From Candidatus Saccharimonadota bacterium (GTDB lineage: Bacteria; Patescibacteriota; Patescibacteriia; 2-12-FULL-60-25): DNA of 32,000 bases. This document shows positions 1,606 to 28,339 of the stretch, piece after piece. The stretch lies in the NCBI GenBank assembly GCA_023898425.1, contig CP060222.1:690001-722000 (forward strand), read 5' to 3'. Every line of letters begins with the position of its first letter. The stretch's first letter is position 1. The position numbers were made by a program, and so were the translations under genes. The notes under the pieces are model-generated. The model searched no databases and was not told where the DNA came from. It saw only the letters and a program-made list of their open reading frames with translations.

Positions 1606-1749
1606 ATGGGTATTTGAGAATGCGCAGATACTAGCAGAACCTTCGAAAATACGCAAGACAAAGGCTTCGTTATCACCTTTTAGCAGTATTGACGGGCTAT
1701 GTTAGTAGCCTTAGGGTTTAAATGACTCGTACCGGAGGAGATGCCCGTC

Positions 1750-2256
1750 ATGCCATCTAAAAAAGCAGAGCCTTATATCCGTGAAGATTTTGAGCTAGAG
1801 AAAACCCATCTATTTATCGATGCTGAAAATGACACGACCGTTCATTCTAAGCTCGCTCTCGTGTGGGTACGGTATATTAAAGTTACTAGCTCAAGATTTG
1901 GGACTAACGATGGAGTGGAGCTTCACATTGCTTATCAAGCTCCTGGACAAGAGGATGCTATCGAGGGGATGGTAAGCCCTGAGGACTTTGAACGTCTTGG
2001 CGAGGCTGCGGGAGACGCCAAAAAAGAGCACGCTCTTAAATTTCTCCCTTTTGCTGAAGCGCTGTCATCAGAGCCAAGCTTTCAAACGATTATCATTCCG
2101 CTCTTAGGACCGTACGGATTTCAAAAACTCGTGCACCGATTTGCCTTTATGCTTGAAGCCCTTGTGTCTGACAAGCTTGATCGCGAAGCGGGCGACTATG
2201 TCACCCACATCGATTTAGGTGAATCAAAAAAGGATCAGCGCCGTCTACTATCCTAG
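1750..2256 (+). CDS. hypothetical protein (168 aa; alternative start 1741)
   Basis: Long ORF with no competing ORF. A strong SD, GGAGGAG at 1734-1740, lies 9 nt upstream of the ATG at 1750. No motif I recognise. Confidence 0.5.
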   Translation: MPSKKAEPYIREDFELEKTHLFIDAENDTTVHSKLALVWVRYIKVTSSRFGTNDGVELHIAYQAPGQEDAIEGMVSPEDFERLGEAAGDAKKEHALKFLPFAEALSSEPSFQTIIIPLLGPYGFQKLVHRFAFMLEALVSDKLDREAGDYVTHIDLGESKKDQRRLLS

Positions 2257-2296
2257 CCTATGCTGCAGATCGATCGTCTCAATAAGGAGAATGCCA

Positions 2297-2767
2297 ATGA
2301 GTAAAGAAACAGCTTATCTCACACTAGGCGAAACAAGTCTTGTGCGAAGGGTGTACATTGAGACGCTAGAATATAATTACTTCTTTGTCTTTGGACTCTT
2401 TCTCCTTGTTGACGAAGAAGGTATAGCTACCTACGAACTTCTCTACGAAGTAACCGCTATTGAGAATACGATCTCCGTCAAAATTCGAACACCTATCTCT
2501 GCAAGTGAGATACACCGTCTATACGATATCGCTGAGACGAATGCGACTCATGTAAAAACAGATGTCTCATGCCGACGAACAGAGCATCTTGTGCGTGATT
2601 TCTTCGTCATCCCCGAGCCAATTTCGCTCTATCTGCCACTTAGTGGTGAAGCGAGCGTAAGAAGCTTGATTATCGGATTTTACAACCAGCACATCGCAAA
2701 TAAGCTTCCAGCGATTATGGAGTATAATTCTGGAATCGGAAGTAAAGGATCTACGGACATCAACTAA
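2297..2767 (+). CDS. hypothetical protein (156 aa)
   Basis: ORF in the frame of track ORF 2219..2767. SD AAGGAGA at 2284-2290 precedes the ATG at 2297 (ATG at 2291 also possible). A terminator follows. No motif I recognise. Confidence 0.5.
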   Translation: MSKETAYLTLGETSLVRRVYIETLEYNYFFVFGLFLLVDEEGIATYELLYEVTAIENTISVKIRTPISASEIHRLYDIAETNATHVKTDVSCRRTEHLVRDFFVIPEPISLYLPLSGEASVRSLIIGFYNQHIANKLPAIMEYNSGIGSKGSTDIN

Positions 2768-2806
2768 AAACAAACCCCGCTTGAGCGCTGCTCGCGGGGT
2801 ATTTTA
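2766..2806. terminator. bidirectional terminator hairpin between convergent genes
   Basis: ccccgc-tt-gagc gct gctc-gcgggg hairpin (2775-2800), flanked by an A-run on the left and tatttta on the right. It sits between convergent stops at 2767 and 2804. Confidence 0.7.
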
Positions 2807-3928
2807 TGACATAAGTTTTCTTACCACCCACCAATAGCCTTTCATGAGTGGGTTGCCGATATTCTCAAGAAAAGTGCTCTTGGCGCTATCATGTTGAAAA
2901 AGAATTTCTGCAACAAAGTATTTGGTAAATTCACGATCATTTATTTTTCGTCTTTTTTGAATCACTTGTCTACGCTCACGAACCCAGTTCTGATACGACG
3001 CTGATCCAAGCTCTTTGTAGACCTTCTTTTTTTCTGGCCACCAACCACGCGCAAGAGCAAATAACACTAATGCTACTTCCATGGCTACTAATAACGGCAT
3101 GATAAGAAAAAGCGTCCAAGGCTTGAGGTACATAAACAATACCGCATAGCGATTGCGCTCCATCCAATAAAACTTGGTGATGGATTTTGAGAACTCATAC
3201 CAATGATAAATCACCGACTCCGGAACCACGACGACCTTATAGCCACGAAGTCGCATCATAAAAGAAGTGTCGGTGTCTTCGTGATATAAGAAAAATGGTT
3301 CATGAAATAGCTCTTCGTCTTGCAAAGCCGAAACACGCACCATCATCCCCGCTCCCGAAGCATAGGCAATTTCTAAATCAGGATTTGTCTTACGTTCATT
3401 GGCAAAATGCGTTTGCGCTTGTTCTATCGTCCACTTATATCCACGAGAATACCCAAAGCCCAAAAAGTGATAGGCATTACCAACCGTATTTACACGATCA
3501 CGTTCTTCACCAAGCAAAATCAATGATTGCGCGATACCAATATTTTTATCACTCTCCATTTTTGTGATAATCGGCTCTAAAAATCCTGGGTCAACATCCG
3601 CATCTTCATTGAGTAGGTAAACATAGTCGCATCCCAACTCCTTTGCCTTGGCGATTCCACGATTATTGTTTGCAGCAAAACCTAATGACTCATTCGTATA
3701 ATCAAGATATGTTATGTGCGGTAAACTCGCACCAGATTTTGGCATCCATTCTTTTTCGAACCAAGACTTTACTGCTTCGCGATTGGATTTTGATTCAACA
3801 CAAATAAGTTCAATACGCTCTTTTGGATAAGTAATTTTTTCGAGCGAAGTCATCGCATTCACAATATCGCGCTCCCATTTTTCGGTAGCGTAAGTGAGAT
3901 AGATGATTCCAATTTTTGGTAGACTCAT
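2804..3928 (-). CDS. family 2 glycosyltransferase (rhamnosyltransferase-like) with C-terminal membrane segment
   Basis: 374 aa. GT2-type N-terminal layout, LLNEDADV (DxD-like), FFLYHEDTDTSFMMRLRG (the ED-x-D/E...R block typical of WbbL-like GT2). Hydrophobic stretch LKPWTLFLIMPLLVAMEVALVLFALA. Confidence 0.8.
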   Translation of the reverse strand: MSLPKIGIIYLTYATEKWERDIVNAMTSLEKITYPKERIELICVESKSNREAVKSWFEKEWMPKSGASLPHITYLDYTNESLGFAANNNRGIAKAKELGCDYVYLLNEDADVDPGFLEPIITKMESDKNIGIAQSLILLGEERDRVNTVGNAYHFLGFGYSRGYKWTIEQAQTHFANERKTNPDLEIAYASGAGMMVRVSALQDEELFHEPFFLYHEDTDTSFMMRLRGYKVVVVPESVIYHWYEFSKSITKFYWMERNRYAVLFMYLKPWTLFLIMPLLVAMEVALVLFALARGWWPEKKKVYKELGSASYQNWVRERRQVIQKRRKINDREFTKYFVAEILFQHDSAKSTFLENIGNPLMKGYWWVVRKLMS

Positions 3929-3977: not shown

Positions 3978-4772
3978 TCATGATTTTATCTTTGAACGAA
4001 ATGTCGTTCCAATGCATGCGATAGATTCTCCATTGATTTTTTTATAGGCAGTTATACGCAAATGTTTTGGACGCTTTCTTTCAGCTTTAATACGTGCCCA
4101 AAAACCACGCTCTTCTCGAATGGAGCGGATATGAAAGGCTTTTGTCTCGCTCACGCAAATAGACGTAAAACCTGCATGATGCAAACGAAAAGCGAGCTCC
4201 ACATCTTCTTTGTACATAAAGAATCGCGGATCAAAAAGATTGCGATCATCACGTACGTGCTCGATGGATGAACGTCGATATAGTGCTACCGCTCCTGAAA
4301 CTCCCCATACAGGATTTGAGGTAATACGCTTAAGATCGCTTACCATTCCTAAACAAAGATATTCTAAACCGGCAGAATCAATATCATCGGTTGGCTTTTC
4401 GTCCCAGCGCATGACAAGCGGTGTTGCTGATGCAATATTTTTATCATTGTCGAGTGCTTGCACCATCTTTTCTAAACAATCATCAGCAAGATACGCGTCT
4501 TGATTTAGTACAAAGACATAAGGTGACACTGTTTTTTGGTAAAGAATATTATGTGCGCTAAAACCAAGATTTTTTTCGCCAATATCTAGACGATAATGAC
4601 AAGTAAAATTTGCGAGATGTACACGGACTCGTGCGAGCTCGGTTTCATCAACGGAGTTTTCGTAAAAGAGCACTTCGAAGTCTGTGAATGTTTGACGCTC
4701 GAGCGAACGCAAAAGCGCATGGAGATATTGACTCCCATGAAAAAGCACTACTTGAATGACGAGTTTTTTCAT
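3978..4772 (-). CDS. family 2 glycosyltransferase (rhamnosyltransferase-like)
   Basis: Start taken at MKKLVIQVV (ATG 4772), 5 nt after the upstream stop. Motifs VLNQDAYL and FFMYKEDVELAFRLHHAG. Confidence 0.8.
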   Translation of the reverse strand: MKKLVIQVVLFHGSQYLHALLRSLERQTFTDFEVLFYENSVDETELARVRVHLANFTCHYRLDIGEKNLGFSAHNILYQKTVSPYVFVLNQDAYLADDCLEKMVQALDNDKNIASATPLVMRWDEKPTDDIDSAGLEYLCLGMVSDLKRITSNPVWGVSGAVALYRRSSIEHVRDDRNLFDPRFFMYKEDVELAFRLHHAGFTSICVSETKAFHIRSIREERGFWARIKAERKRPKHLRITAYKKINGESIACIGTTFRSKIKS

Positions 4773-4776
4773 ACAG

Positions 4777-5676
4777 CTATCTTTTTGTAGCACTAAACAT
4801 CTTTGTTATTACAAATGATAAACGCGCCGCATTTTTGATAAAAGACACTTGCCAAGCTGGATGCCATTTATCAAAATACGCAATCATCGACGCTGAAAAC
4901 ACTTTGTTCTTCCAGAGACTATCGCGTTGAGCAAAGCTCGGACTCGTGAGAAAATCATACGCTTTGATTGATGGATCATAAACAACCCGTAATCCATGCT
5001 CTTTAGCAGATCGGCAATAATCTACTTCTTCAAACCATAAAAAATATCGCTCATCTAACATGCCCAATGTCTTTTTTGCTGTTTCGCTTATCGCAAAAAA
5101 GGCACCACGAATAGAGTCGCAATCTTGAGTTTTAGCAAGATCAAGATCTTTGCCCATATAACGCGAAATCGTAAACGGAAAAATCGCCGCGATTTTAAGC
5201 AAGACACACAACTGACTCAATAGCGTTGGAAAGCGTCGAAGCTGTGGTACGGGCTGACCATTTCGCATTACCAACATACCTCCCAATACACCAATCGTAT
5301 GATCACCATCAAGAATCTTCACGACTTTTTCTAATGCATCCGTTTCAACGGTCGTATCTGGATTTAACAAAAGTAGATGTCGGCCTTGAGCATTTTCCCA
5401 TGCTTGATTATTGGCTTTTGCAAAACCGGCATTCTCGCTATTGGTAATGATATGCGCCCAAGGAAATAACTGCCGTACCAACGCTACCGAATCATCTGTA
5501 GAAGCATTGTCGACGATATACCATTCGGCTTTTAGAGCGCCTTCGCTTTTTTGCAATGAATCTCCAAGTGATTGTAATTGCGCTACCGAATTCCAGGTAA
5601 CCGTAATAACCGTAAGGTCTATGCCATCGTTTTGTTGGACTGAGATCCATTGTATTTTATTATCCTGGCTATCCAT
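4777..5676 (-). CDS. family 2 glycosyltransferase (rhamnosyltransferase-like)
   Basis: 299 aa. DNASTDDS, NAGFAKANN, LLLNPDT, FFLWFEEVDYCRSAKEHG. This is the canonical GT2 WbbL-like motif order. Confidence 0.85.
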   Translation of the reverse strand: MDSQDNKIQWISVQQNDGIDLTVITVTWNSVAQLQSLGDSLQKSEGALKAEWYIVDNASTDDSVALVRQLFPWAHIITNSENAGFAKANNQAWENAQGRHLLLLNPDTTVETDALEKVVKILDGDHTIGVLGGMLVMRNGQPVPQLRRFPTLLSQLCVLLKIAAIFPFTISRYMGKDLDLAKTQDCDSIRGAFFAISETAKKTLGMLDERYFLWFEEVDYCRSAKEHGLRVVYDPSIKAYDFLTSPSFAQRDSLWKNKVFSASMIAYFDKWHPAWQVSFIKNAARLSFVITKMFSATKR

Positions 5677-5726
5677 ATCACTTTGGTGAATTGCTTTGAC
5701 AGTACACGTTTGCTAACGTTTAGACC

Positions 5727-6701
5727 ATGTCTCACCTACTTGTCACGGGCGGCGCTGGCTTTATTGGCGCAAATTTTGTGCGTTATTGGAGTCAAAACCA
5801 TCCTGAGGATAAAATACGTGTTTTGGATGCGCTTACCTATGCAGGCAACCTTCAAAATCTCGACGGTATCGATTGCGAGTTTATTCATGGTGATATTTGT
5901 GATCCAGAAATCGTGCATAAGGCATTTGAAGATATCGATATCGTTGTGCATTTTGCCGCAGAGACTCATGTTGATCGCTCGATTACCGGGAGCTTGCCAT
6001 TTGTACAAACAAACCTCATTGGCACACTTACCCTGCTAGAAGAAACGAAAAAACGCGGTGATCAAATCAAACGCTTTCATCATATTTCAACCGATGAAGT
6101 TTTTGGTGCGCTCGAACTTGATACAAAAACACTTTTTTCTGAAACAACGCCTTATGACCCACGTAGTCCGTATAGCGCGTCAAAAGCTGGTGCAGATCAC
6201 TTAGTGCGCTCGTATTACCATACACATCACCTACCGATTACGATCAGTAATTGCTCAAATAACTACGGACCTTATCACTTTCCTGAAAAACTCATTCCGT
6301 TGATGATTATCCAAGCGATTCATGATGAGCCACTACCTGTGTATGGAGATGGATTAAATGTTCGTGATTGGATTCACGTCGAAGATCATTGTCGTGGCAT
6401 TGAGGCTATTTTAGAAAAAGGTGTCATTGGAGAAACCTACTGTCTCGGCGGTAATGCTGAGCGTCCTAATATCGAGGTCGTTAAGCTCGTATTACAATAT
6501 CTCAATAAACCCGAATCACTCATCGCCTATGTTGAGGACCGTAAGGGTCATGACCGTCGCTATGCTATTGACTCAAGCAAAGCAAAACGCGAACTAGACT
6601 GGGAACCAAATAAGACATTTGAAGAAGGACTAAAAGAAACCGTGCAATGGTATTTAAATCACAAAGATTGGTGGGAGCCTCTCTTGACAAAAGCCTCGTA
6701 A
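5727..6701 (+). CDS. rfbB: dTDP-glucose 4,6-dehydratase
   Basis: 324 aa. TGGAGFIGANFV Rossmann motif, catalytic YSASKAGADHLV, DALTYAGNLQNL. Typical RmlB length. Confidence 0.93.
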   Translation: MSHLLVTGGAGFIGANFVRYWSQNHPEDKIRVLDALTYAGNLQNLDGIDCEFIHGDICDPEIVHKAFEDIDIVVHFAAETHVDRSITGSLPFVQTNLIGTLTLLEETKKRGDQIKRFHHISTDEVFGALELDTKTLFSETTPYDPRSPYSASKAGADHLVRSYYHTHHLPITISNCSNNYGPYHFPEKLIPLMIIQAIHDEPLPVYGDGLNVRDWIHVEDHCRGIEAILEKGVIGETYCLGGNAERPNIEVVKLVLQYLNKPESLIAYVEDRKGHDRRYAIDSSKAKRELDWEPNKTFEEGLKETVQWYLNHKDWWEPLLTKAS

Positions 6702-6716
6702 TTTCGAGGCTTTTCT
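6688..6716 (+). terminator. terminator/attenuator hairpin overlapping the rfbB stop codon
   Basis: aaaagcctcg (6688-6697) pairs perfectly with cgaggctttt (6704-6713). The loop taattt contains the TAA stop, and the T-run continues as ttttct. Confidence 0.5.
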
Positions 6717-6732
6717 GTTAAAAAGACCCTAT

Positions 6733-8388
6733 ATGAAGATACTTGTTATTGGTGCAAATGGCTTTGTCGCACAGCGATTTCATGATGCATATCCAAGCGA
6801 AACAATCGCTTTTACCGGACGCGTGACGGACAAAGCTTCTTTTCTTGAAGTGCTCGACCAACATCAGCCTGATGCTGTCGTGAATGCTGCTGGTCGTACC
6901 GGTAGACCAAATGTCGACTGGTGTGAGTCACATCAAGTAGAGACGTACGAAGGCAATGTCATTATGCCACTTGTTTTGGCAAGCGCCTGCCAAGAACGAA
7001 GCGTTTATCTTTTACATCTAGCATCAGGCTGTATTTTTTATGGCGACTCCCCTGATCCACGTGGCTGGAGAGAAAATGACTTTGCAAATCCAACATCATT
7101 CTATTCACGTACAAAATACTCAGCAGATCTTGTTTTGTCGCATTTACCAAATGTTGGTATCGCTCGTTTGCGCATGCCGATTGATAGCAGACCCCATCAA
7201 CGCAATCTCATTGATAAACTCGCAACGTACAAACAAATCGTTGATGTAGAAAATAGTGCAACCGTTATCGAAGATCTTGTGCGTGTTATTTTTGAGCTTT
7301 GTCAGAAAAAAGGTGAAGGCGTTTTTCATGTTGTGAACCCTGGGACACTTAGACACCGTGATCTTATCAATCTCTATCAAGAACTTGTTGATGCATCCGT
7401 TCAACCTGAGTGGATTAATGCTGATGATCTCGTTGCCCGTGGACTCGCTGTCAAAGGACGCTCAAATTGCATTCTCCAGTCTACGCGCTTACAAGAGCTT
7501 GGTATTTCGATGCGCCCGATTGATGTAGCACTGCGCGATACCATGATGAAGTACGCTGTCTATAAACTCGCGCAACAGCCTCGCCAACAACAGCAACCAT
7601 CAACATCTTTTTTACGTGGCCCTGTTCCGATGCAAAATACGGAGCCTTTGATGCAAACTCCCTCACAACCCCCAAAAATGAAGGGCGCTATTTTAGCCGG
7701 TGGTCGTGGTACACGTTTGGCGCCACTTACGAACGTAACAAATAAACATCTTTTACCGATTAATAATAAGCAAATGGTGCTTTATCCTTTGCAAACATTA
7801 TTAAACGCTGGTATTCGTGACATTATTATTGTGACGGGACCCGACTATGCTGGCCACTTTATGAATCTCTTGGGTTCTGGTAAGCAGTTTGGTTGTAATA
7901 TCACCTACCGTATTCAGGATGAATCAGCTGGCATCGCCCACGCGCTCGCACTCTGTGAAGAATTTGTTGGCAATGACTATGTAACGGTTATTCTTGGAGA
8001 TAATATTTTTGAAGATCAATTTCATACGGCTATCTCCAGCTTTCAGGGTGGCGCGATGGGATTTTATAAACCCGTTCATGATCCAGAGCGCTTTGGTGTA
8101 ATGGAAATTGATAGCACCGGACGTGTACTGACTATCGAAGAAAAACCTCAGCAACCACGTTCAAACTTCGCGCAAGTAGGGCTCTACGTGTATGATAAGC
8201 ATGTCTTTGATATTGTAAGAACCCTCAAACCATCGGCACGTGGCGAACTAGAAATCACCGATGTAAATAATGTGTACCTACAACAAGGGCAACTCTCCGC
8301 ACGTCCTGTTCGTGGCTTTTGGACAGATGCAGGGACTTTTGACAGCTTAAAGAAAGCCTCGGACTTTGCCGCAGAACGCGGTCTCTAA
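6733..8388 (+). CDS. fusion protein: NRS/ER-type 4-keto-6-deoxyglucose 3,5-epimerase/4-reductase-like domain, Q/P-rich linker, glucose-1-phosphate thymidylyltransferase (short RmlA type)
   Basis: Single 551-aa frame with no internal stop. The N-terminal ~280 aa carry AAGRTGRPNVDWCESHQVET, ASGCIF, SFYSRTKYSAD (YxxxK), RLRMPIDS and NLIDKLATYKQIVDVENS. These match my recollection of plant NRS/ER rather than bacterial RmlD. Linker QQPRQQQQPSTS...PSQPPK. The C-terminal domain begins MKGAILAGGRGTRLAPLTNVTNKHLLPI. Confidence 0.85.
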   Translation: MKILVIGANGFVAQRFHDAYPSETIAFTGRVTDKASFLEVLDQHQPDAVVNAAGRTGRPNVDWCESHQVETYEGNVIMPLVLASACQERSVYLLHLASGCIFYGDSPDPRGWRENDFANPTSFYSRTKYSADLVLSHLPNVGIARLRMPIDSRPHQRNLIDKLATYKQIVDVENSATVIEDLVRVIFELCQKKGEGVFHVVNPGTLRHRDLINLYQELVDASVQPEWINADDLVARGLAVKGRSNCILQSTRLQELGISMRPIDVALRDTMMKYAVYKLAQQPRQQQQPSTSFLRGPVPMQNTEPLMQTPSQPPKMKGAILAGGRGTRLAPLTNVTNKHLLPINNKQMVLYPLQTLLNAGIRDIIIVTGPDYAGHFMNLLGSGKQFGCNITYRIQDESAGIAHALALCEEFVGNDYVTVILGDNIFEDQFHTAISSFQGGAMGFYKPVHDPERFGVMEIDSTGRVLTIEEKPQQPRSNFAQVGLYVYDKHVFDIVRTLKPSARGELEITDVNNVYLQQGQLSARPVRGFWTDAGTFDSLKKASDFAAERGL

Positions 8389-8390
8389 CA

Positions 8391-9536
8391 ATGAAACACT
8401 ATCTTGTACTCGGTGGAGGGTTTGCAGGAATCTCAGCCATTCGTGAATTACGCAAACAATCAAACATCACCATTACGCTCATTGATCAAAGTGAGCGTTT
8501 TGTCTTTACCCCATGGCTTATTGATGCCCTCGCCGATGAGCGTACGCTTTTAGACATTTCTGCTGACTACGAATCTCTTTCAAAAAAACTTGGATTTACC
8601 TTTGTTCGCGGCACCGTAGAACAACTCGAGCGCGAAGACCGTCAAGTTACGGTTACGCTTACTTCTGGTCAAAAACAAACTCTTTCGTTTGACGAAGCTA
8701 TTCTTACTTTGGGAGCAAAGACTTGCTACTACGGCATACAAGGAGCGACAGCAAATACCCTTCCGCTCAAAAACCTACAGGATGTTGAGCATATTCATAC
8801 CCATGTACGAAATGCTATAAAAAAAGCTCTTTCTGCATCAGACACCCGCACAAAACAAGAGCTTTTAAGTTTCGTTATGGTTGGCGCTGGCCCAACCGGC
8901 GTTGAAAGTGCTTTTGCACTAAAGAAATTCGTGATGCAAACACTTGGTGATCAGTGGCAAAGACTTGCTGCTTATACACATTTTTACATCGTCCAAGGTG
9001 CACCAACGATTTTACCAGGCTTTAATAGCCATGCGATCAATCTCGCAACAGATGAGCTAAGAAAACAAGGGTTTGAACTCATCTTAGGCGAGCCAGTAGA
9101 AACACTAGAAGAAAATACGCTTCACACTACCAAAGGTACAACTATTCACGCTGCGACCATTCTTTGGTGTGCTGGCGTGGAGCCAAACTTTATTACCGTA
9201 GAGCCTGAACTCCCTAAAGAGCGTGGTGGCTGGATTAGTCCGAATGATCTTTTACTCGATGATACGATCGCTGGAGCAGGTGACAATATTCGTATCATGC
9301 TCGGAACATTGCCCGCTCCAAAAACAGCACAGATCGCTATGCCGATGGGTAAGGCTGCCGCACAAAGAATTATCACCAAACAAAAGAAGCCTTTTACTTA
9401 TGTGAGCAAAGGTGCTGTTCTTACGCTTGGAGAAACAGGCTTATTCGACTTTGGTTTTCTTAAAGTAAAAACCCCGCTCGCAAAGACCGTTCGCTCAATG
9501 CTCTATCGCTTGCGCTTTAACGAGCTCACAAAATAG
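8391..9536 (+). CDS. ndh: type II NADH dehydrogenase-like FAD-dependent pyridine nucleotide-disulfide oxidoreductase
   Basis: 381 aa. Two dinucleotide-binding motifs (LGGGFAGISA and VGAGPTGVE). The start lies 2 nt after the upstream stop. Confidence 0.75.
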   Translation: MKHYLVLGGGFAGISAIRELRKQSNITITLIDQSERFVFTPWLIDALADERTLLDISADYESLSKKLGFTFVRGTVEQLEREDRQVTVTLTSGQKQTLSFDEAILTLGAKTCYYGIQGATANTLPLKNLQDVEHIHTHVRNAIKKALSASDTRTKQELLSFVMVGAGPTGVESAFALKKFVMQTLGDQWQRLAAYTHFYIVQGAPTILPGFNSHAINLATDELRKQGFELILGEPVETLEENTLHTTKGTTIHAATILWCAGVEPNFITVEPELPKERGGWISPNDLLLDDTIAGAGDNIRIMLGTLPAPKTAQIAMPMGKAAAQRIITKQKKPFTYVSKGAVLTLGETGLFDFGFLKVKTPLAKTVRSMLYRLRFNELTK

Positions 9537-9537
9537 T

Positions 9538-9999
9538 ATGGACCTTTTTCGTAAACACGGGATTGATTACTCACAGATTACTGAACAGATTTTTATTTGT
9601 ACGAATGCCTGCTGCCTTACGCATTATGAGCTGTCTTTAACACAACAAGGTATCACATCAGATATTAGTCTCGAACAAGAGCACCTTGATGGCGCTCAAG
9701 GAGCAGAGACCTTTCTCTGGCTTCCGACACTTGACCATACACCGGTCTCTCAAGAACATTTATTTCTTGGTGCTAACGTACTCAATTTCTTGATCAAACA
9801 AGATAAGAAAATCTATGTTCATTGCAAAAACGGTCATGGCCGCTCTCCGATGCTTGTTGCCGCTTACTTTATCTTATACCAAGGCATGACAGTAGACGAA
9901 GCCATAAATACTATTCGCGCAAAAAGACCTACGATCCATCTTGATCCTGATCAATATGAAGCCTTGCAGAAATGCTCCCAAACAAAAATCCCTCAGTAA
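9538..9999 (+). CDS. dual-specificity (CX5R) phosphatase family protein
   Basis: 153 aa with the active-site signature VHCKNGHGRSP (HCxxGxxRS). The start lies 1 nt after the ndh stop. Confidence 0.7.
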   Translation: MDLFRKHGIDYSQITEQIFICTNACCLTHYELSLTQQGITSDISLEQEHLDGAQGAETFLWLPTLDHTPVSQEHLFLGANVLNFLIKQDKKIYVHCKNGHGRSPMLVAAYFILYQGMTVDEAINTIRAKRPTIHLDPDQYEALQKCSQTKIPQ

Positions 10000-10020
10000 C
10001 TGAGGGATTTTTGTTTTTTA
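9988..10020. terminator. bidirectional rho-independent terminator
   Basis: atccctcag (9988-9996), loop taa (the stop codon), ctgagggat (10000-10008), then tttttgtttttt. An A-rich run on the other side serves the convergent minus-strand gene. Confidence 0.75.
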
Positions 10021-10024
10021 TGAC

Positions 10025-10414
10025 TTACAAGTTAAAACTACCACGTAACTTACCGATATAAGGGATTTCCCAAAACTCACCTTGGAGACATTTGACGAGA
10101 GCGATAATATCCACAACAAAGAGCAAGATTGCTAATGCCCAGCCAACAAGTGGAATCCAGAAAACAAACGAACCAACAAGTCCAGCAATAAATACCATGA
10201 GACCTTGTTTTGCGTGCTCATAGGCATACTTAGAGTCCTTTTTGAGCAAAAGCGGCACAAAGACTAGGATGCCGACATAAGATAATGCCGCAACAAGCTT
10301 ATTGTCCTCAATATCTTTTGAATCAAAGTGCATAACAGGGGTAGCCATCTTTGGTGGCTCGGTGTGACCTTGAGAATGTTGTTGGTTCTCGGTGTTTTGG
10401 GTATTTTGTTCCAT
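10025..10414 (-). CDS. small integral membrane protein (DUF4870/Tic20-like pattern)
   Basis: 129 aa. Polar N-terminus then hydrophobic helices. LVAALSYVGILVFVPLLLKKDSKYAYEHAKQGLMVF resembles the DUF4870 signature as I recall it. Confidence 0.5.
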   Translation of the reverse strand: MEQNTQNTENQQHSQGHTEPPKMATPVMHFDSKDIEDNKLVAALSYVGILVFVPLLLKKDSKYAYEHAKQGLMVFIAGLVGSFVFWIPLVGWALAILLFVVDIIALVKCLQGEFWEIPYIGKLRGSFNL

Positions 10415-10451
10415 ATAGCTATAGCATTACTGATAAATGATCTTTTGACAA

Positions 10452-12343
<1,892 letters not shown>

Positions 12344-12366
<23 letters not shown>

Positions 12367-13594
12367 AGGTAAATACAACGATAAGACTCAATAAAGCGAA
12401 CCCTGGCCAATAGCTCCAGAGATAGTGATCTAATACCACAATCGGACATAGCGCAACTATCAGACTCATAACTGCTGGTCGTGTTGTTGGATAGCGTTTT
12501 ATCTTATCAAGTAACATCGACAACCACTGAACGAATACGTAGAGCAGGGTGATAAAACCAACAATTCCTGTCTCTATGAGTATTACAATTGGCACAATAT
12601 GCGGAATAACTGGCTTTAGCTCTTGCTCGATAAGCGCAGGTAAAAGCGCCCCTTGTCCCGTACCAAGTAATGGCCGTTGTTTAATCATAGGCCAGGCCTG
12701 TTTTAGCGCAAGGACACGTTCGCTAACAGATTTTTGCTCCGCAAACTGACCACTCCCTGAAGAAATTGGTCGCACAAGCAATGGAAAAATGGCCAGTGTC
12801 AGGATAAATGGAATAAGTATCCAATGAGCATGAAAATGATCAGTTGAGTGTTTACGCAAGCGATCTTTTCGTAAAAGCACTTCATGGGCTAGTAACCCGC
12901 CAAATAAAGACAACCATGCAGAACGTGAAGCGGTAAACCCAAGCGCAATGACTAATAGTGGCACAACATAAAAGAGCACTTTTTGCATTCTTCTGTTGTA
13001 GGAACCCCATGCTATCGCAACAAATAATAAACTTACGGCAAGATACCCACCAAATATATTTGGGTGGGGAAATCCGCCATATATTCTTAAATAACGTATC
13101 CCCTCACTTAAGATAACCGCCGTCCCTTGTGACTGCGGATTTAATAACGCTAATCCCAGCCACTTACTTGGTAGGCTCCATTGAAAAATCCATTGTGCTA
13201 ACCCAATAAGTGCATGCGGAACAAGCGCTATCGCAAACCAAAATGACATTTTTTCAATAGCGATCTGTTCGCGTCTCAATACCCAAATACTTAACGCGGC
13301 AATTGCAAATATCCATAACCAGGCGATACTCGCACGTTGAGAGAATGAAAAAAGCGCTGGTAATACTATCCCTATAATAACCAATAATTCAGTTTTTTTG
13401 GGTACTCTCAATGTTAGTGGTTTTTGCTTTATTGAAAGAAAGGTTAAAAGCACGATCAAAAACCAGGATGCATAGACAGAAAACCTTCCTTGCTCCCAAG
13501 GATACCCCGCCAAAGCACCCGCATCATAAAACCATCTCGTCTGCCAAGGTAAGGCGAGAAAATAGCCAATAATTACCCATTCTTTAAACCTCAT
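12344..13594 (-). CDS. O-antigen ligase/polymerase-like (Wzy_C-type) polytopic membrane protein
   Basis: About 10 or more hydrophobic helices, a large loop, and the block RSAWLSLFGGLLA...LLGTGQGAL...IETGIVGF, reminiscent of the O-antigen ligase family. Start ambiguous (13594 or 13645). The 3' end overlaps the groES start by 23 nt. Confidence 0.55.
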
Positions 13595-14477
13595 AGCGTT
13601 TGCAAAGCTGTCGATATCGATCACGAAATTCTGCGCGACGATCATCTACATGAAATTTTAGTATGTGATCATTCGCAACAACTGCCGTACCCTGCCCAAG
13701 TTGAGAACGGATTTCTTTGGCAAACTTCCACTCTGAAAGCCTGCGTGAAAGCGACTCAATAAAGCGAAATGTCGGTAGACGAAATATAGACATGCTGTTT
13801 TTCTGCCCAGCTAAAAGCATCCAGGGTTGTGCAAGTGGATATCTCGTACGTAGTTTAGCGTTTTGATTCCAGAGCTCTACACCTATCCCGTCATCAAGTA
13901 GTGGTAGCAATGACAAAAACCAATGCTGCAAATAGACATCCTGCTCTATGCTAAGTGACGAGAGGTCGAGAGCACGCTCATCAACAAAAAACGTTAAACA
14001 AACTGGGTCATGTTTTGCCGTCTCAACACGCCAACGTAATACCATCAAAAACACCGTTGCAAAAAAACGTGTCTGCCAAGCGGTATGTTGTTTACATACA
14101 ATAAAAAGATCGATATCACTTTCTTCGGTTGTGTGCGCGAGAGCAAGCGTATTACAAACGTAAACGCCTTTTACCCCAGCTAAATGATAAAGCAGCTTGG
14201 TAAATCGTTTTGCTCGACGAATTTTACGTGGGAACAATGCTTCTCGTTGTCGATGCTCTTCTATCAAGCTTTCTGAACCAGGAAAAACAAAACGACCTTT
14301 TTGATAGAGAATGACGCCTTCTGCCACAAGAGCGTCTATCGCATGTTCTGTATCTTCGTGTAGCAATGTTCTATCGCTTGTTTCTGCATGCGTAACAAGT
14401 TCAAATTTTGTTGCAGGATACGCAAGAGAAGCAAAAAAACACTGAGCACGAAGGATAGCAGCTCGTGCTTCTTGCAT
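13584..14477 (-). CDS. hypothetical protein, possible Pol-beta-superfamily nucleotidyltransferase fold
   Basis: Start taken at MQEARAAIL (ATG 14477), 1 nt after the dnaX stop. The segment VYVCNTLALAHTTEESDIDLFIV resembles a G/S...DxD NTase motif. This assignment is weak. Confidence 0.4.
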   Translation of the reverse strand: MQEARAAILRAQCFFASLAYPATKFELVTHAETSDRTLLHEDTEHAIDALVAEGVILYQKGRFVFPGSESLIEEHRQREALFPRKIRRAKRFTKLLYHLAGVKGVYVCNTLALAHTTEESDIDLFIVCKQHTAWQTRFFATVFLMVLRWRVETAKHDPVCLTFFVDERALDLSSLSIEQDVYLQHWFLSLLPLLDDGIGVELWNQNAKLRTRYPLAQPWMLLAGQKNSMSIFRLPTFRFIESLSRRLSEWKFAKEIRSQLGQGTAVVANDHILKFHVDDRRAEFRDRYRQLCKRYEV

Positions 14478-23268: not shown

Positions 23269-25176
23269 TTATTCAGCTTTTGGTTCTTCTGGTTCGGTTT
23301 TTGCAGATTCTGTTTGTTCTCCTTCGCTAGTTGGAGGAACTTCTGCTTCTGGACGGTCTTGATAGAGCGCAGCACCGACTTTTTGGGCTTCGGTGGCGAG
23401 TTCGTCAGCGGCTTTTTTTGATCGCTTCGATATCGTCGCCGTCTTTAATTGCTTTTAATGCCTCCATCTTTTCTTCAACAACTTTTTTGTCTTCTTCTTT
23501 GGCTTTGTCACCTGCATCTTTCAACATTTTTTCTGTTGTATAGATCATGGTTTCTGCCATGTTTTTTACTTCTACCGATTCGCGACGTTTTTGTCTTCTT
23601 CGGCATGCGCTTCGGCGTCTTTCTTCATGCGTTCGACTTCTTCTTTATCAAGGTTTGTCGAAGCGGTGATGGTGATTGCCTGTTCTTTGTTTGTGCCTTT
23701 GTCTTTGGCTTTAACATTTAAGATACCGTTCGCATCAATATCAAAGGTCACTTCGATTTGAGGAACACCACGTGGTGCTGGTGGGATATCCGAAAGCGTA
23801 AAGCGACCGAGGATTTATTATCAGCTGCCATATCGCGCTCACCCTGAAGTACATGGATTTCTACTGATGGCTGGCTGATTATCAGCGGCCGTTGAGAAGG
23901 TTTGTGATTTTGACGTTGGAATCGTTGTGTTACGTTCAATCACTTTTGTCATCACGCTCCCCATGGTTTCGATACCAAGCGAAAGTGGTGCTACATCAAG
24001 CAAAAGAACTTCTCCCTTAATATCACCCTGCATATTACCGGCCTGAATCGCAGCACCAACAGCAACAACCTCATCTGGGTTTACCGTAGCGTTTGGTTTT
24101 TTGCCAAAGAATTTTTCTACGGATTGTTGCACAAGTGGCATACGCGTCATACCACCAACAAGAATCACTTCGTTGATATCGGATGCGCTAAGACCTGCGT
24201 CTGCAAGCGCTTTCTTACAAGGGATAAGAGATTTTTCGACAAGATCACCAACGATTTGCTCAAGTTTTGAGCGTGATAGCTTAATCATCAAGTGCTTTGG
24301 TACACCATTGTCACTTGTGATAAATGGTTGATTGATTTCTGTCTCCATTGAGCTTGAGAGCTCGATTTTTGCTTTTTCTGCCGCATCTTTAATACGTTGT
24401 AAAGCGAGATTGTCTTTACCCAAATCAATACCTTCGGATTTTTTAAATTCATCAACAATCCACTCAATAATGCGTTGATCAAAGTCATCACCACCAAGAT
24501 GTGTGTCACCATTGGTTGCACGAACTTCGATGGTGTTTTGTTCTGTCGAAGCATCATAGGCAACCTCGAGAACGGAGACATCAAAGGTACCACCACCGAG
24601 ATCGTAGACAACGATCTTTTCGTCTTTTTTGCGATCAAAACCGTATGCAAGAGCGGCGGCTGTTGGCTCGTTGATAATACGACGTACATTTAAGCCAGCG
24701 ATTTCACCAGCGATTTTTGTTGCTTGGCGTTGTGAGTCATCAAAATATGCCGGTACGGTAATGACCGCTTCGGTGATCTTTTCGCCAATACGTGCTTCTG
24801 CATCCGCTTTGAGTTTTTGTAAAACCATGGCCGAGATTTCTTCTGGCGCATAGTCTTTATCACCCATGGTAATACGTGGGCTATCGTCTTTTTTAGTGAC
24901 TTTAAACGGAAACCATTTGAGATCACGTTGTACGGCCTCATCATCATATCGTCGACCAATCAAGCGCTTCGCAGAAAAAATCGTGTTTTCTGGATTTACG
25001 ACACCCTGGCGTTTTGCTACCTGACCAACCAAGCGTTCGCCGCCTTTTGTGACAGCAACAACGGATGGTGTAGTGCGTGCGCCTTCGGCGTTTTCGAGTA
25101 CTTTTGGTTGACCGCCTTCGATAACCACCATACAGGAGTTGGTAGTACCGAGATCAATTCCGAGAATTTTTGACAT
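23269..25176 (-). pseudogene. dnaK: dnaK (Hsp70) interrupted by four indels; intact frame only to codon 445
   Basis: The N-terminal 445 aa are canonical DnaK ([27 protein letters not shown]). The rest of the protein ([78 protein letters not shown]) is recovered only by switching frames at about 23869-23876, 23809-23813, 23588-23592 and 23413-23419. The total span is 1908 nt, ending at TAA 23269-23271. Confidence 0.88.
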
Positions 25177-27898: not shown

Positions 27899-28339
27899 AT
27901 GCAATACAAAATTACGGATCGCCGACTCAAAGAACGCCGGCGCGAGTTAAGAAAAAATGCCACCAACGAAGAGCGTGACCTTTGGCACTATCTGCGTGGG
28001 CGAAAGCTGGGTGGCTACAAATTTCTTCGCCAATTTAGCATCAATCGATTTATCGTAGACTTCTACTGCGCACAATATCGTGTTGCTATCGAAATAGATG
28101 GATCACAGCATGCTAGTGATCAAGGCGCCACCTACGACGTAGAACGAACAGCCATCCTCTCTGAATTTGGCGTTACGACTATTCGCTTTACCAATAACGA
28201 TATCAATAAACGCATCGGATACGTAATAAAAACTATTACCGATACCATCACCGAGGCCGCGAACTCATCCTCCAGCTCCTTCTCTTCTTCGAGAGAAGGA
28301 GAGCGACTGATTGAAGCCTCAGCATCAGTTCTCCCTTGA
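27899..28339 (+). CDS. DUF559 (Vsr-like PD-(D/E)XK) endonuclease domain protein
   Basis: LRKNATNEERDLWHYLRGRKLGGYKFLRQFSINRFIVDFYC...AIEIDGSQH...YDVERTAILSEFGVTTIRFTNNDI is the typical DUF559 pattern. The Ser-rich C-terminal tail runs into the hairpins and is probably not conserved. Confidence 0.85.
   Translation: MQYKITDRRLKERRRELRKNATNEERDLWHYLRGRKLGGYKFLRQFSINRFIVDFYCAQYRVAIEIDGSQHASDQGATYDVERTAILSEFGVTTIRFTNNDINKRIGYVIKTITDTITEAANSSSSSFSSSREGERLIEASASVLP
28276..28301. repeat. hairpin H4 inside the 3' tail of the DUF559 ORF
   Basis: ctccttctc (28276-28284) pairs with gagaaggag (28293-28301) around an 8-nt loop. The pyrimidine arm comes first, as in H1-H3. Confidence 0.55.

Follow-up and report, generated by a model that had tools for sequence, protein, structure and literature searches.

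This study concerns a stretch of 32,000 nucleotides from an ultra-small bacterium of the Patescibacteria (contig CP060222.1 of assembly GCA_023898425.1, positions 690,001 to 722,000), which is called the window in the following and to which all positions refer. On its forward strand, rmlB (5727..6701), encoding an NDP-glucose 4,6-dehydratase of 324 amino acids (aa), is followed by a separate gene of 551 codons plus stop in a single open reading frame (ORF; 6733..8388). The 551-aa product of this second gene joins an epimerase/reductase (ER) domain (aa 1-281; 6733..7575, forward strand) via a Q/P-rich interdomain linker (aa 282-315; 7576..7677) to a short-form RmlA domain (aa 316-551; 7678..8385). 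With these genes, the bacterium appears to have the rhamnose route in two genes rather than four. Probably, the fusion protein covers steps 1, 3, and 4 of nucleoside diphosphate (NDP)-L-rhamnose synthesis and RmlB covers step 2, with the ER domain replacing both RmlC and RmlD.

An earlier interpretation made from the letters of the DNA and its translated ORFs, referred to here as the sequence-only reading, had described the gene as two enzymes connected by a Q/P-rich linker without an intervening stop codon. This description held. The frame is open throughout, and Pfam models assigned aa 1-260 to RmlD_sub_bind/Epimerase, a short-chain dehydrogenase/reductase (SDR) domain, and aa 317-547 to NTP_transferase, with the linker QQPRQQQQPSTSF...PSQPPK between them. 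A search of 5.8 billion proteins with the fusion yielded 864 matches, and the homologue figures given here refer to the best 120 of these, clustered at 90% identity. All 120 cover both domains, two of them slightly truncated, with 55-99% identity and mostly 99-100% coverage. They originate from NCBI, JGI, ENA, and Logan assemblies, and those with names are Magasanikbacteria, Uhrbacteria or 'Patescibacteria group'; the closest cluster (P0001, 99% identical) is labeled Candidatus Magasanikbacteria, and no entry identical to the window protein turned up in an exact look-up. More than 100 independent homologues from Patescibacteria thus carry the ER-RmlA fusion, and the fusion is real.

In an alignment of 27 homologues, the linker (columns ~280-345) is hypervariable in length and sequence, and it is always in frame. 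AlphaFold predicted residues 283-310 to be disordered, with a predicted local distance difference test (pLDDT) score below 50. The full-length model with a mean pLDDT of 86 and a predicted template modeling (pTM) score of 0.53 is that of two rigid domains, indicating a floppy linker between them. The ATG at 7678, at the start of the RmlA domain, is preceded by the bases ...ccctcacaacccccaaaaATG and has no GGAGG-like Shine-Dalgarno sequence, as had been pointed out before. Also, the corresponding Met316 is replaced by Ile or Leu in four of the 27 homologues, so that no start codon is conserved at this site.

The N-terminal domain is of the NRS/ER type and no ordinary RmlD, as judged from sequence, predicted fold, and a neighbor-joining (NJ) tree; here, the view taken in the sequence-only reading was borne out. 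Among PDB sequences, the domain matched Arabidopsis NRS/ER (4qqr) with 168 bits (E 2.7e-48) and Mimivirus L780 (7jid) with 109 bits (E 1.8e-30), whereas the best bacterial RmlD (1vl0) reached 45 bits (E 9e-11). The RmlD equivalog model TIGR01214 was missed (91.2 bits vs a cut-off of 224.05), and the match to PF04321 was weak (82 bits). Each of the motif blocks from which the resemblance had originally been recognized aligns with Arabidopsis NRS/ER, where they read AAGVTGRPNVDWCESHKVET, ATGCIF, SFYSKTK, RVRMPISS, NFITKIARYEKVVDIPNS, and FTNPG. Since the top 50 Foldseek matches of the full-length model were RmlA structures only, the N-terminal domain (aa 1-281) was also modeled alone (pLDDT 92, pTM 0.90). 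For this model, Foldseek listed 7jid first (E 6e-25, template modeling (TM) score 0.89) and 4qqr second (E 9.5e-25, TM 0.84-0.86), while the best RmlD had an E-value of 4e-18.

For the tree, 154 sequences were aligned: the window domain, 4qqr, 7jid, representatives of clusters at 50% identity, the ER-type and RmlD-type ORFs of related loci, E. coli RfbD, and 1vl0. In 200 of 200 bootstraps, the NJ tree was split into 128 ER-type and 26 canonical RmlD sequences, with the window domain, like NRS/ER and L780, among the ER-type sequences and outside the canonical RmlD clade. Its identity to E. coli RmlD in this alignment is about 22%.

The residues expected for an SDR enzyme are present. The ER domain has a GxxGxxG motif at aa 7-13 and the SDR fold, and its putative reduction triad Ser98-Tyr124-Lys128 is encoded at 7024-7116; G7, G10, S98, Y124, and K128 are conserved, and a Ser/Thr-Tyr-Lys triad is common to the ER-type and RmlD groups. 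Two further residues, Cys100 (7030-7032) and Lys162 (7216-7218), align with Cys108 and Lys175 of L780, which are key catalytic residues confirmed by mutagenesis (reviewed in PMC9614988). The column of Cys100 holds Cys in 125 of 128 ER-type sequences and Tyr or Phe in all 26 RmlD sequences. At the position of Lys162, 126 of 128 ER-type sequences have Lys, while RmlD has Thr in 19 and Lys in 5 of 26. Both residues are invariant in the 27 fusion homologues. In this alignment, the Cys/Lys pair is what sets ER-type enzymes apart from RmlD.

A separate 3,5-epimerase gene, whose absence beside rfbB (rmlB) and the RmlA domain had been noted before, was indeed not found in the window. Tblastn with E. 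coli RfbC against the 32 kb gave no match (best E 0.68), a profile hidden Markov model (HMM) built from 18 RmlC sequences detected nothing even at E<=10 among the window ORFs of at least 50 aa, and Pfam scans, which took in 29 ORFs, revealed neither rmlC nor a second rmlD in the 32 kb. For comparison, 185,579 species-representative genomes were scanned, which yielded 80 loci that were sorted by blastp. The RmlC profile HMM had a match within ±10 kb in 0 of 17 ER-type loci and nearby in 23 of 31 canonical-RmlD loci (Fisher p = 3e-7), these loci being phylogenetically non-independent and the two classes being defined by similarity to the two queries. RmlC was also not found fused to the long ER-type proteins P0124, P0156, and P0171. 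The scan also gave full-length matches outside Patescibacteria (Methanolobus, Balneola, Rhodohalobacter, planctomycetes, and others). In these, canonical rmlD and rmlA lie side by side, in most cases accompanied by rmlC, and they were rejected as ER fusions.

The C-terminal domain is, by its sequence features, a short-form glucose-1-phosphate thymidylyltransferase. It matched PF00483 with 203 bits, and its best PDB match was RmlA of Bacillus anthracis (3hl3/4ecm; E 5e-75); the best relatives of the domain are thymidylyltransferases. Foldseek superimposed it on 4ecm with a TM score of 0.91 and 51% identity. The motifs GGxGTRL, LGDN, EEKP, and WxDxGT are invariant in the 27 homologues. The domain matches positions 1-236 of the 286 model positions and has no C-terminal extension, and because of this short form it scores below the equivalog cut-off.

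RmlB exceeded the cut-off of TIGR01181 (473 bits vs 365.1). Its best PDB matches were bacterial dTDP-glucose dehydratases with 375-325 bits (6bi4 375), and Mimivirus R141 followed with 216 bits. According to published work, a Tyr that stacks on thymine in prokaryotic dehydratases is His in eukaryotes and Gln in Mimivirus (PMC9741107). The window RmlB has Tyr in this column (E. coli Tyr224), as do the related triple fusions described below, and plant RHM has His.

Based on these data, the following route is proposed. In step 1, the RmlA domain would convert glucose-1-phosphate and dTTP to deoxythymidine diphosphate (dTDP)-glucose, with UTP possibly being tolerated. In step 2, RmlB, encoded separately upstream, would form dTDP-4-keto-6-deoxyglucose and thereby provide the substrate of the ER domain. 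The ER domain would then perform the 3,5-epimerization and the NADPH-dependent 4-reduction in a single active site, with Cys100 and Lys162 as acid/base in epimerization and the triad Ser98/Tyr124/Lys128 as reduction machinery. The outcome would be dTDP-beta-L-rhamnose without RmlC or RmlD, which three family 2 glycosyltransferases (GT2) encoded nearby would put into a surface glycan. The dual activity of the ER domain is inferred by homology to NRS/ER and L780. At this level, the core of the sequence-only reading, namely that the RmlC and RmlD steps reside in the ER domain of the fusion, is supported.

The product is likely dTDP-L-rhamnose, with a uridine diphosphate (UDP)-linked product being possible. 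The dTDP sugar is favored because RmlA and RmlB are of the bacterial dTDP type, the latter with the thymine-stacking Tyr. In line with this, enzymes of the NRS/ER family accept dTDP substrates according to the literature, and L780 acts on both UDP- and dTDP-linked substrates, with UDP being preferred (PMC9614988). The choice between dTDP- and UDP-rhamnose, which had been left open before, is thus narrowed toward dTDP by the type of RmlA and RmlB. A different outcome was obtained for the idea that the fusion channels the first and last steps. RmlB acts between the fused activities, and since these are non-consecutive, direct channeling is not implied. Most likely, the fusion fixes the stoichiometry and co-expression of genes that were already adjacent in the order rmlB-ER-rmlA.

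Several points weigh against the proposed route. Bifunctionality rests on two to three characterized eukaryotic or viral homologues that are 28-36% identical, and the stereochemistry of the C4 reduction (rhamnose or 6-deoxytalose) is not readable from sequence. The tree was built by NJ only and has deep internal nodes with 6-11% support, and the locus comparison carries the dependence between loci and the query-based classes mentioned above. The absence of rmlC holds for the 32-kb window, and an rmlC elsewhere in the genome is possible. The RmlA domain is below the NCBIfam equivalog cut-offs of TIGR01207 and TIGR01208 (264 bits vs 360.65 and 209 bits vs 320.25, respectively). Also, there are indel errors elsewhere in the assembly, with dnaK being frameshifted.

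An unlikely alternative is that the two genes serve a different sugar nucleotide, such as dTDP-6-deoxy-L-talose, a D-configured 6-deoxyhexose or UDP-linked rhamnose, with the ER domain being bi- or monofunctional. The ambiguous C4 stereochemistry leaves room for it, as do the existence of closely related SDR 4-reductases of opposite stereospecificity, the preference of L780 for UDP substrates, and the related giant-virus enzyme Mg535, which performs 3-epimerization and reduction on an N-acetylhexosamine substrate (PMC9614988). However, the dehydratase, which has the thymine-stacking Tyr, is an RmlB equivalog of the retaining kind and not of the inverting FnlA/CapE type, both nearest characterized homologues of the ER domain give L-rhamnose, and the neighboring GT2 proteins match a rhamnosyltransferase model, although weakly (~30 bits).

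It is also rather improbable that the N-terminal domain is a divergent RmlD acting as 4-ketoreductase only, while rmlC or an unrecognized cupin encoded elsewhere performs the epimerization. The weak matches to the RmlD models PF04321 (82 bits) and TIGR01214 (91 bits) are compatible with this, 32 kb of the genome were in view, canonical rmlC and rmlD occur in other Patescibacteria (L019, L039; PMC5220378), and algal RmlC-NRS/ER fusions of unknown function have been described (PMC6556577). Against it stand the retention of Cys100 and Lys162 in 125-126 of 128 ER-type sequences, compared to Tyr/Phe in 26 of 26 and Lys in 5 of 26 RmlD sequences, the lack of rmlC near ER-type genes (0/17 vs 23/31 for RmlD loci), and the fact that the closest characterized proteins are all bifunctional. 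The chance that the fusion is an artefact of assembly or annotation, in which a lost stop or a frameshift joined two adjacent genes, is practically negligible: dnaK in the same window is multiply frameshifted, and ER and rmlA are separate but adjacent in some relatives (e.g. L005), but the breadth of independent homologues is incompatible with a missed stop or frameshift, as the best 120 of 864 clusters from several assembly sources cover both domains at 55-99% identity, the linker stays in frame at every length in 27 homologues, the internal Met is not conserved, and a triple fusion (P0067) is present on 6 contigs. The reading of the two genes as a complete route to NDP-L-rhamnose with a bifunctional ER domain is therefore retained as the probable one.

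In relatives, the order rmlB-ER-rmlA is found at three levels of integration. It occurs as three genes in a locus from Nomurabacteria (L005), as two genes (rmlB plus ER-RmlA) in the window and in L003, and as RmlB-ER-RmlA on one chain of 877-955 aa in about 15 of the best 120 matches (P0051, P0067, P0078, P0079, P0084, P0086, P0088, P0089, P0091, P0096-P0098, P0102, P0103, and P0114). Such a triple fusion would take glucose-1-phosphate all the way to NDP-rhamnose on a single chain, and among the relatives only these proteins place all steps on one chain. One of them, P0067 (933 aa), is encoded in GCA_018061755.1 at a locus syntenic with the window, where RF1, L31, three opposite-strand GT2 genes, the rhamnose gene, and a Pyr_redox_2 gene follow one another. 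In L082, a locus syntenic with the window, the triple-fusion gene is located at 10001..12802. A single origin of the fused proteins was considered and rejected, as they were monophyletic in 0 of 200 bootstraps, with stand-alone ER genes interspersed and 6-11% support for the internal clades. Because of this non-monophyly and the poor support of the clades, no claim is made on the number of fusion events.

Other combinations of these domains were also observed. P0250 (651 aa) is a fusion in reversed order, ER-RmlB, whose thymine-stacking position carries Gln like that of Mimivirus R141, and P0255 (763 aa) is an RHM-like dehydratase-ER fusion. Both adjoin the Arabidopsis/Mimivirus clade in the NJ tree.

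The ER family itself is large. The ER domain alone, used as query, retrieved 6,571 cluster representatives with E<=1e-3 and 272 with E<=1e-30; the majority are stand-alone and 270-300 aa long. From 34 diverse members of the stand-alone kind, a profile was built that detected 3,207 proteins at E<=1e-10, and the named ones among these are all from Patescibacteria (Uhr-, Nomura-, Peregrini-, Peri-, and Gracilibacteria) or labeled 'bacterium'; this taxonomy rests on few named matches. Few of the stand-alone representatives carried a name: one each was labeled Daviesbacteria, plant RHM, 'bacterium', and, by JGI, '3,5-epimerase/4-reductase'. Family members are labeled 'sugar nucleotide-binding protein' by NCBI and 'dTDP-4-dehydrorhamnose reductase' or '3,5-epimerase/4-reductase' by JGI. 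Arabidopsis NRS/ER, L780, and an RHM-like protein group in a small clade of the NJ tree (68% bootstrap support), which was basal to the remaining ER-type sequences in 0 of 200 bootstraps; in this tree, the eukaryotic and viral sequences nest inside the prokaryotic ER family, with poor support for the deeper nodes (6-11%). Calling the enzyme eukaryote- or virus-type, as in the sequence-only reading, is therefore misleading, since prokaryotes contribute thousands of sequences to the family, most of them from Patescibacteria.

In the literature, bacteria with RmlB/RmlC/RmlD are set against eukaryotes and giant viruses with a bifunctional ER enzyme (PMC6556577, PMC9741107, PMC9415975). In an HMM survey from 2019, the udp pathway was confined to eukaryotes and Mimivirus and was mutually exclusive with rml, and the udp pathway is given as absent from prokaryotes (bioRxiv 10.1101/854612). 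Yin et al. (2011) knew four bacterial ER homologues, all from Verrucomicrobia, and called the origin of the enzyme unknown (PMC3220709). They postulated a prokaryotic donor fragment with rmlB beside an integrated ER gene and rmlA, and found none (PMC3220709). This arrangement, with rmlB, ER, and rmlA adjoining, exists in Patescibacteria. In Patescibacterial genome papers, dTDP-rhamnose synthesis appears only in the form of rmlABCD or of a KEGG module, and neither an ER-type enzyme from bacteria, Patescibacteria included, nor an ER-RmlA fusion was found described in the open-access literature. What is new is the ER-RmlA architecture and the unrecognized large prokaryotic home of the NRS/ER family, not a new kind of system. 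We tentatively consider a scenario, possible rather than probable, in which the ER family is ancient and mainly Patescibacterial, eukaryotic NRS/ER and RHM descended from it, the donor arrangement of Yin et al. has been preserved, and the single-chain RmlB-ER-RmlA proteins were built independently.

These observations are relevant in several respects. The bacterial ER-type enzyme breaks the textbook split between bacterial and eukaryotic/viral rhamnose routes and bears on the evolutionary origin of the ER enzyme. Where metabolic reconstructions of Patescibacteria look for rmlC and rmlD, they will mistake the rhamnose pathway for an incomplete one. Furthermore, for making rhamnose donors enzymatically, it is attractive to have routes that lead from glucose-1-phosphate to NDP-rhamnose with one or two genes.

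The 31-nt gap between rmlB and the fusion gene is occupied by part of a predicted RNA hairpin (6684..6721, forward strand), which has a 15-bp stem, spans the rmlB stop codon, and ends in a T-rich tail. RNA folding gave a dG of -17.7 kcal/mol and a z-score of -6.4, and 0 of 200 shuffles folded as well. The hairpin may be a terminator or attenuator between the two genes and might modulate the ratio of rmlB to fusion. A simple terminator scan did not list it, and in a promoter/terminator scan of positions 5500-10100 the matches were at or near shuffle expectation. In the triple-fusion relatives, a protein linker takes the place of this spacer with its hairpin.

Divergent from rmlB, three GT2 genes identified by Pfam are located on the reverse strand (2804..3928, 3978..4793, and 4777..5676). 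Their similarity to the rhamnosyltransferase model TIGR01556 is the weak one of ~30 bits mentioned above, and they likely use NDP-rhamnose. The same GT2 trio lies beside ER-type genes also in L003, L008, L010, L013, L014, and L082-L084, and this recurrence in at least eight loci marks it as a conserved glycan cassette. Downstream, a gene for an NDH-2-like flavoprotein with a Pyr_redox_2 domain (8391..9536, forward strand) starts 2 nt past the fusion stop; its product has S. aureus NDH-2 (5na1, E 6e-27) as best PDB match. It is also found downstream of the fusion in L002, L003, L082, and L083, with one gene between in L003. A membrane protein gene with a Wzy_C domain (O-antigen ligase/polymerase-like; 12344..13645, reverse strand), located beside groES, is possibly part of the surface-glycan system that includes the rhamnose cassette. 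Two overlapping ORFs of 171 and 182 aa (1741..2256 and 2219..2767, forward strand) had no Pfam match and have no counterpart in the syntenic L082, where L31 directly adjoins the GT2 genes; either an insertion or a lack of coding function could account for them.

Further genes comprise housekeeping functions, namely RF1, L31, GroES/EL, DnaX, CysRS, DnaJ/K, GrpE, and HrcA, among which a DUF559/REase_MTES_1575 endonuclease-like gene is located (27899..28339, forward strand). These neighbors, the GC content of ~0.43, and the 99% identity to P0001 assign the window to the Patescibacteria/CPR, with a Magasanikbacteria-like character. The dnaK gene (23270..25176, reverse strand) stops after 445 aa, corresponding to positions 1-431 of 599 of the HSP70 model, and the remaining DnaK sequence runs on in shifted frames with at least 3-4 frame changes. 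These are either assembly indels or the mark of a pseudogene, so the assembly is able to carry frameshift errors.

Among known systems, Arabidopsis thaliana NRS/ER (UER1; 4QQR) and Mimivirus L780 (7JID) are the closest to the ER domain. Both are single-domain SDR proteins performing epimerization and reduction in one active site. Over aligned columns, the window domain has an identity of 36% with NRS/ER and of 28% with L780; the TM scores are 0.84-0.89, and the Cys/Lys pair and the Ser/Thr-Tyr-Lys triad are common to all three. NRS/ER and L780 are stand-alone, eukaryotic or viral, and partnered by a UDP-glucose dehydratase, whereas the window domain is bacterial, fused to RmlA, and partnered by a dTDP-type RmlB. 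Plant RHM1-3, in which a UDP-glucose 4,6-dehydratase is fused to ER, are likewise multi-activity rhamnose synthases, and their dehydratase-then-ER order recurs in the P0067-type relatives (877-955 aa). In the window, however, rmlB stands on its own, and the ER domain is fused to RmlA, a domain absent from every RHM. The Patescibacterial fusions look independent of RHM because their ER domains are far from the RHM/NRS-ER clade in the NJ tree.

RmlC and RmlD of E. coli (rfbC, rfbD) perform the same overall chemistry, from NDP-4-keto-6-deoxyglucose to NDP-L-rhamnose. RmlD shares the SDR fold with the ER domain, and rmlA and rmlB are neighbors in both cases, but that route takes two proteins, including a cupin epimerase, and the window has no cupin. 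Other rml fusions have been reported, i.e. RmlC-RmlD in Prymnesium parvum and ~1% of surveyed bacterial genomes, RmlA-RmlC in Desulfurivibrio and Rhodococcus, and RmlC-NRS/ER in Rhizaria. Some of these, such as RmlA-RmlC, also join non-consecutive steps like the window fusion, yet none joins an NRS/ER-type domain to RmlA, and none dispenses with the cupin epimerase in a bacterium. Finally, the short-form RmlA of B. anthracis (3HL3/4ECM) and the window RmlA domain both comprise ~240 aa and lack the ~50-aa C-terminal extension of the E. coli and Pseudomonas enzymes; the B. anthracis protein differs in being stand-alone and in belonging to an organism with a canonical RmlD (3SC6).

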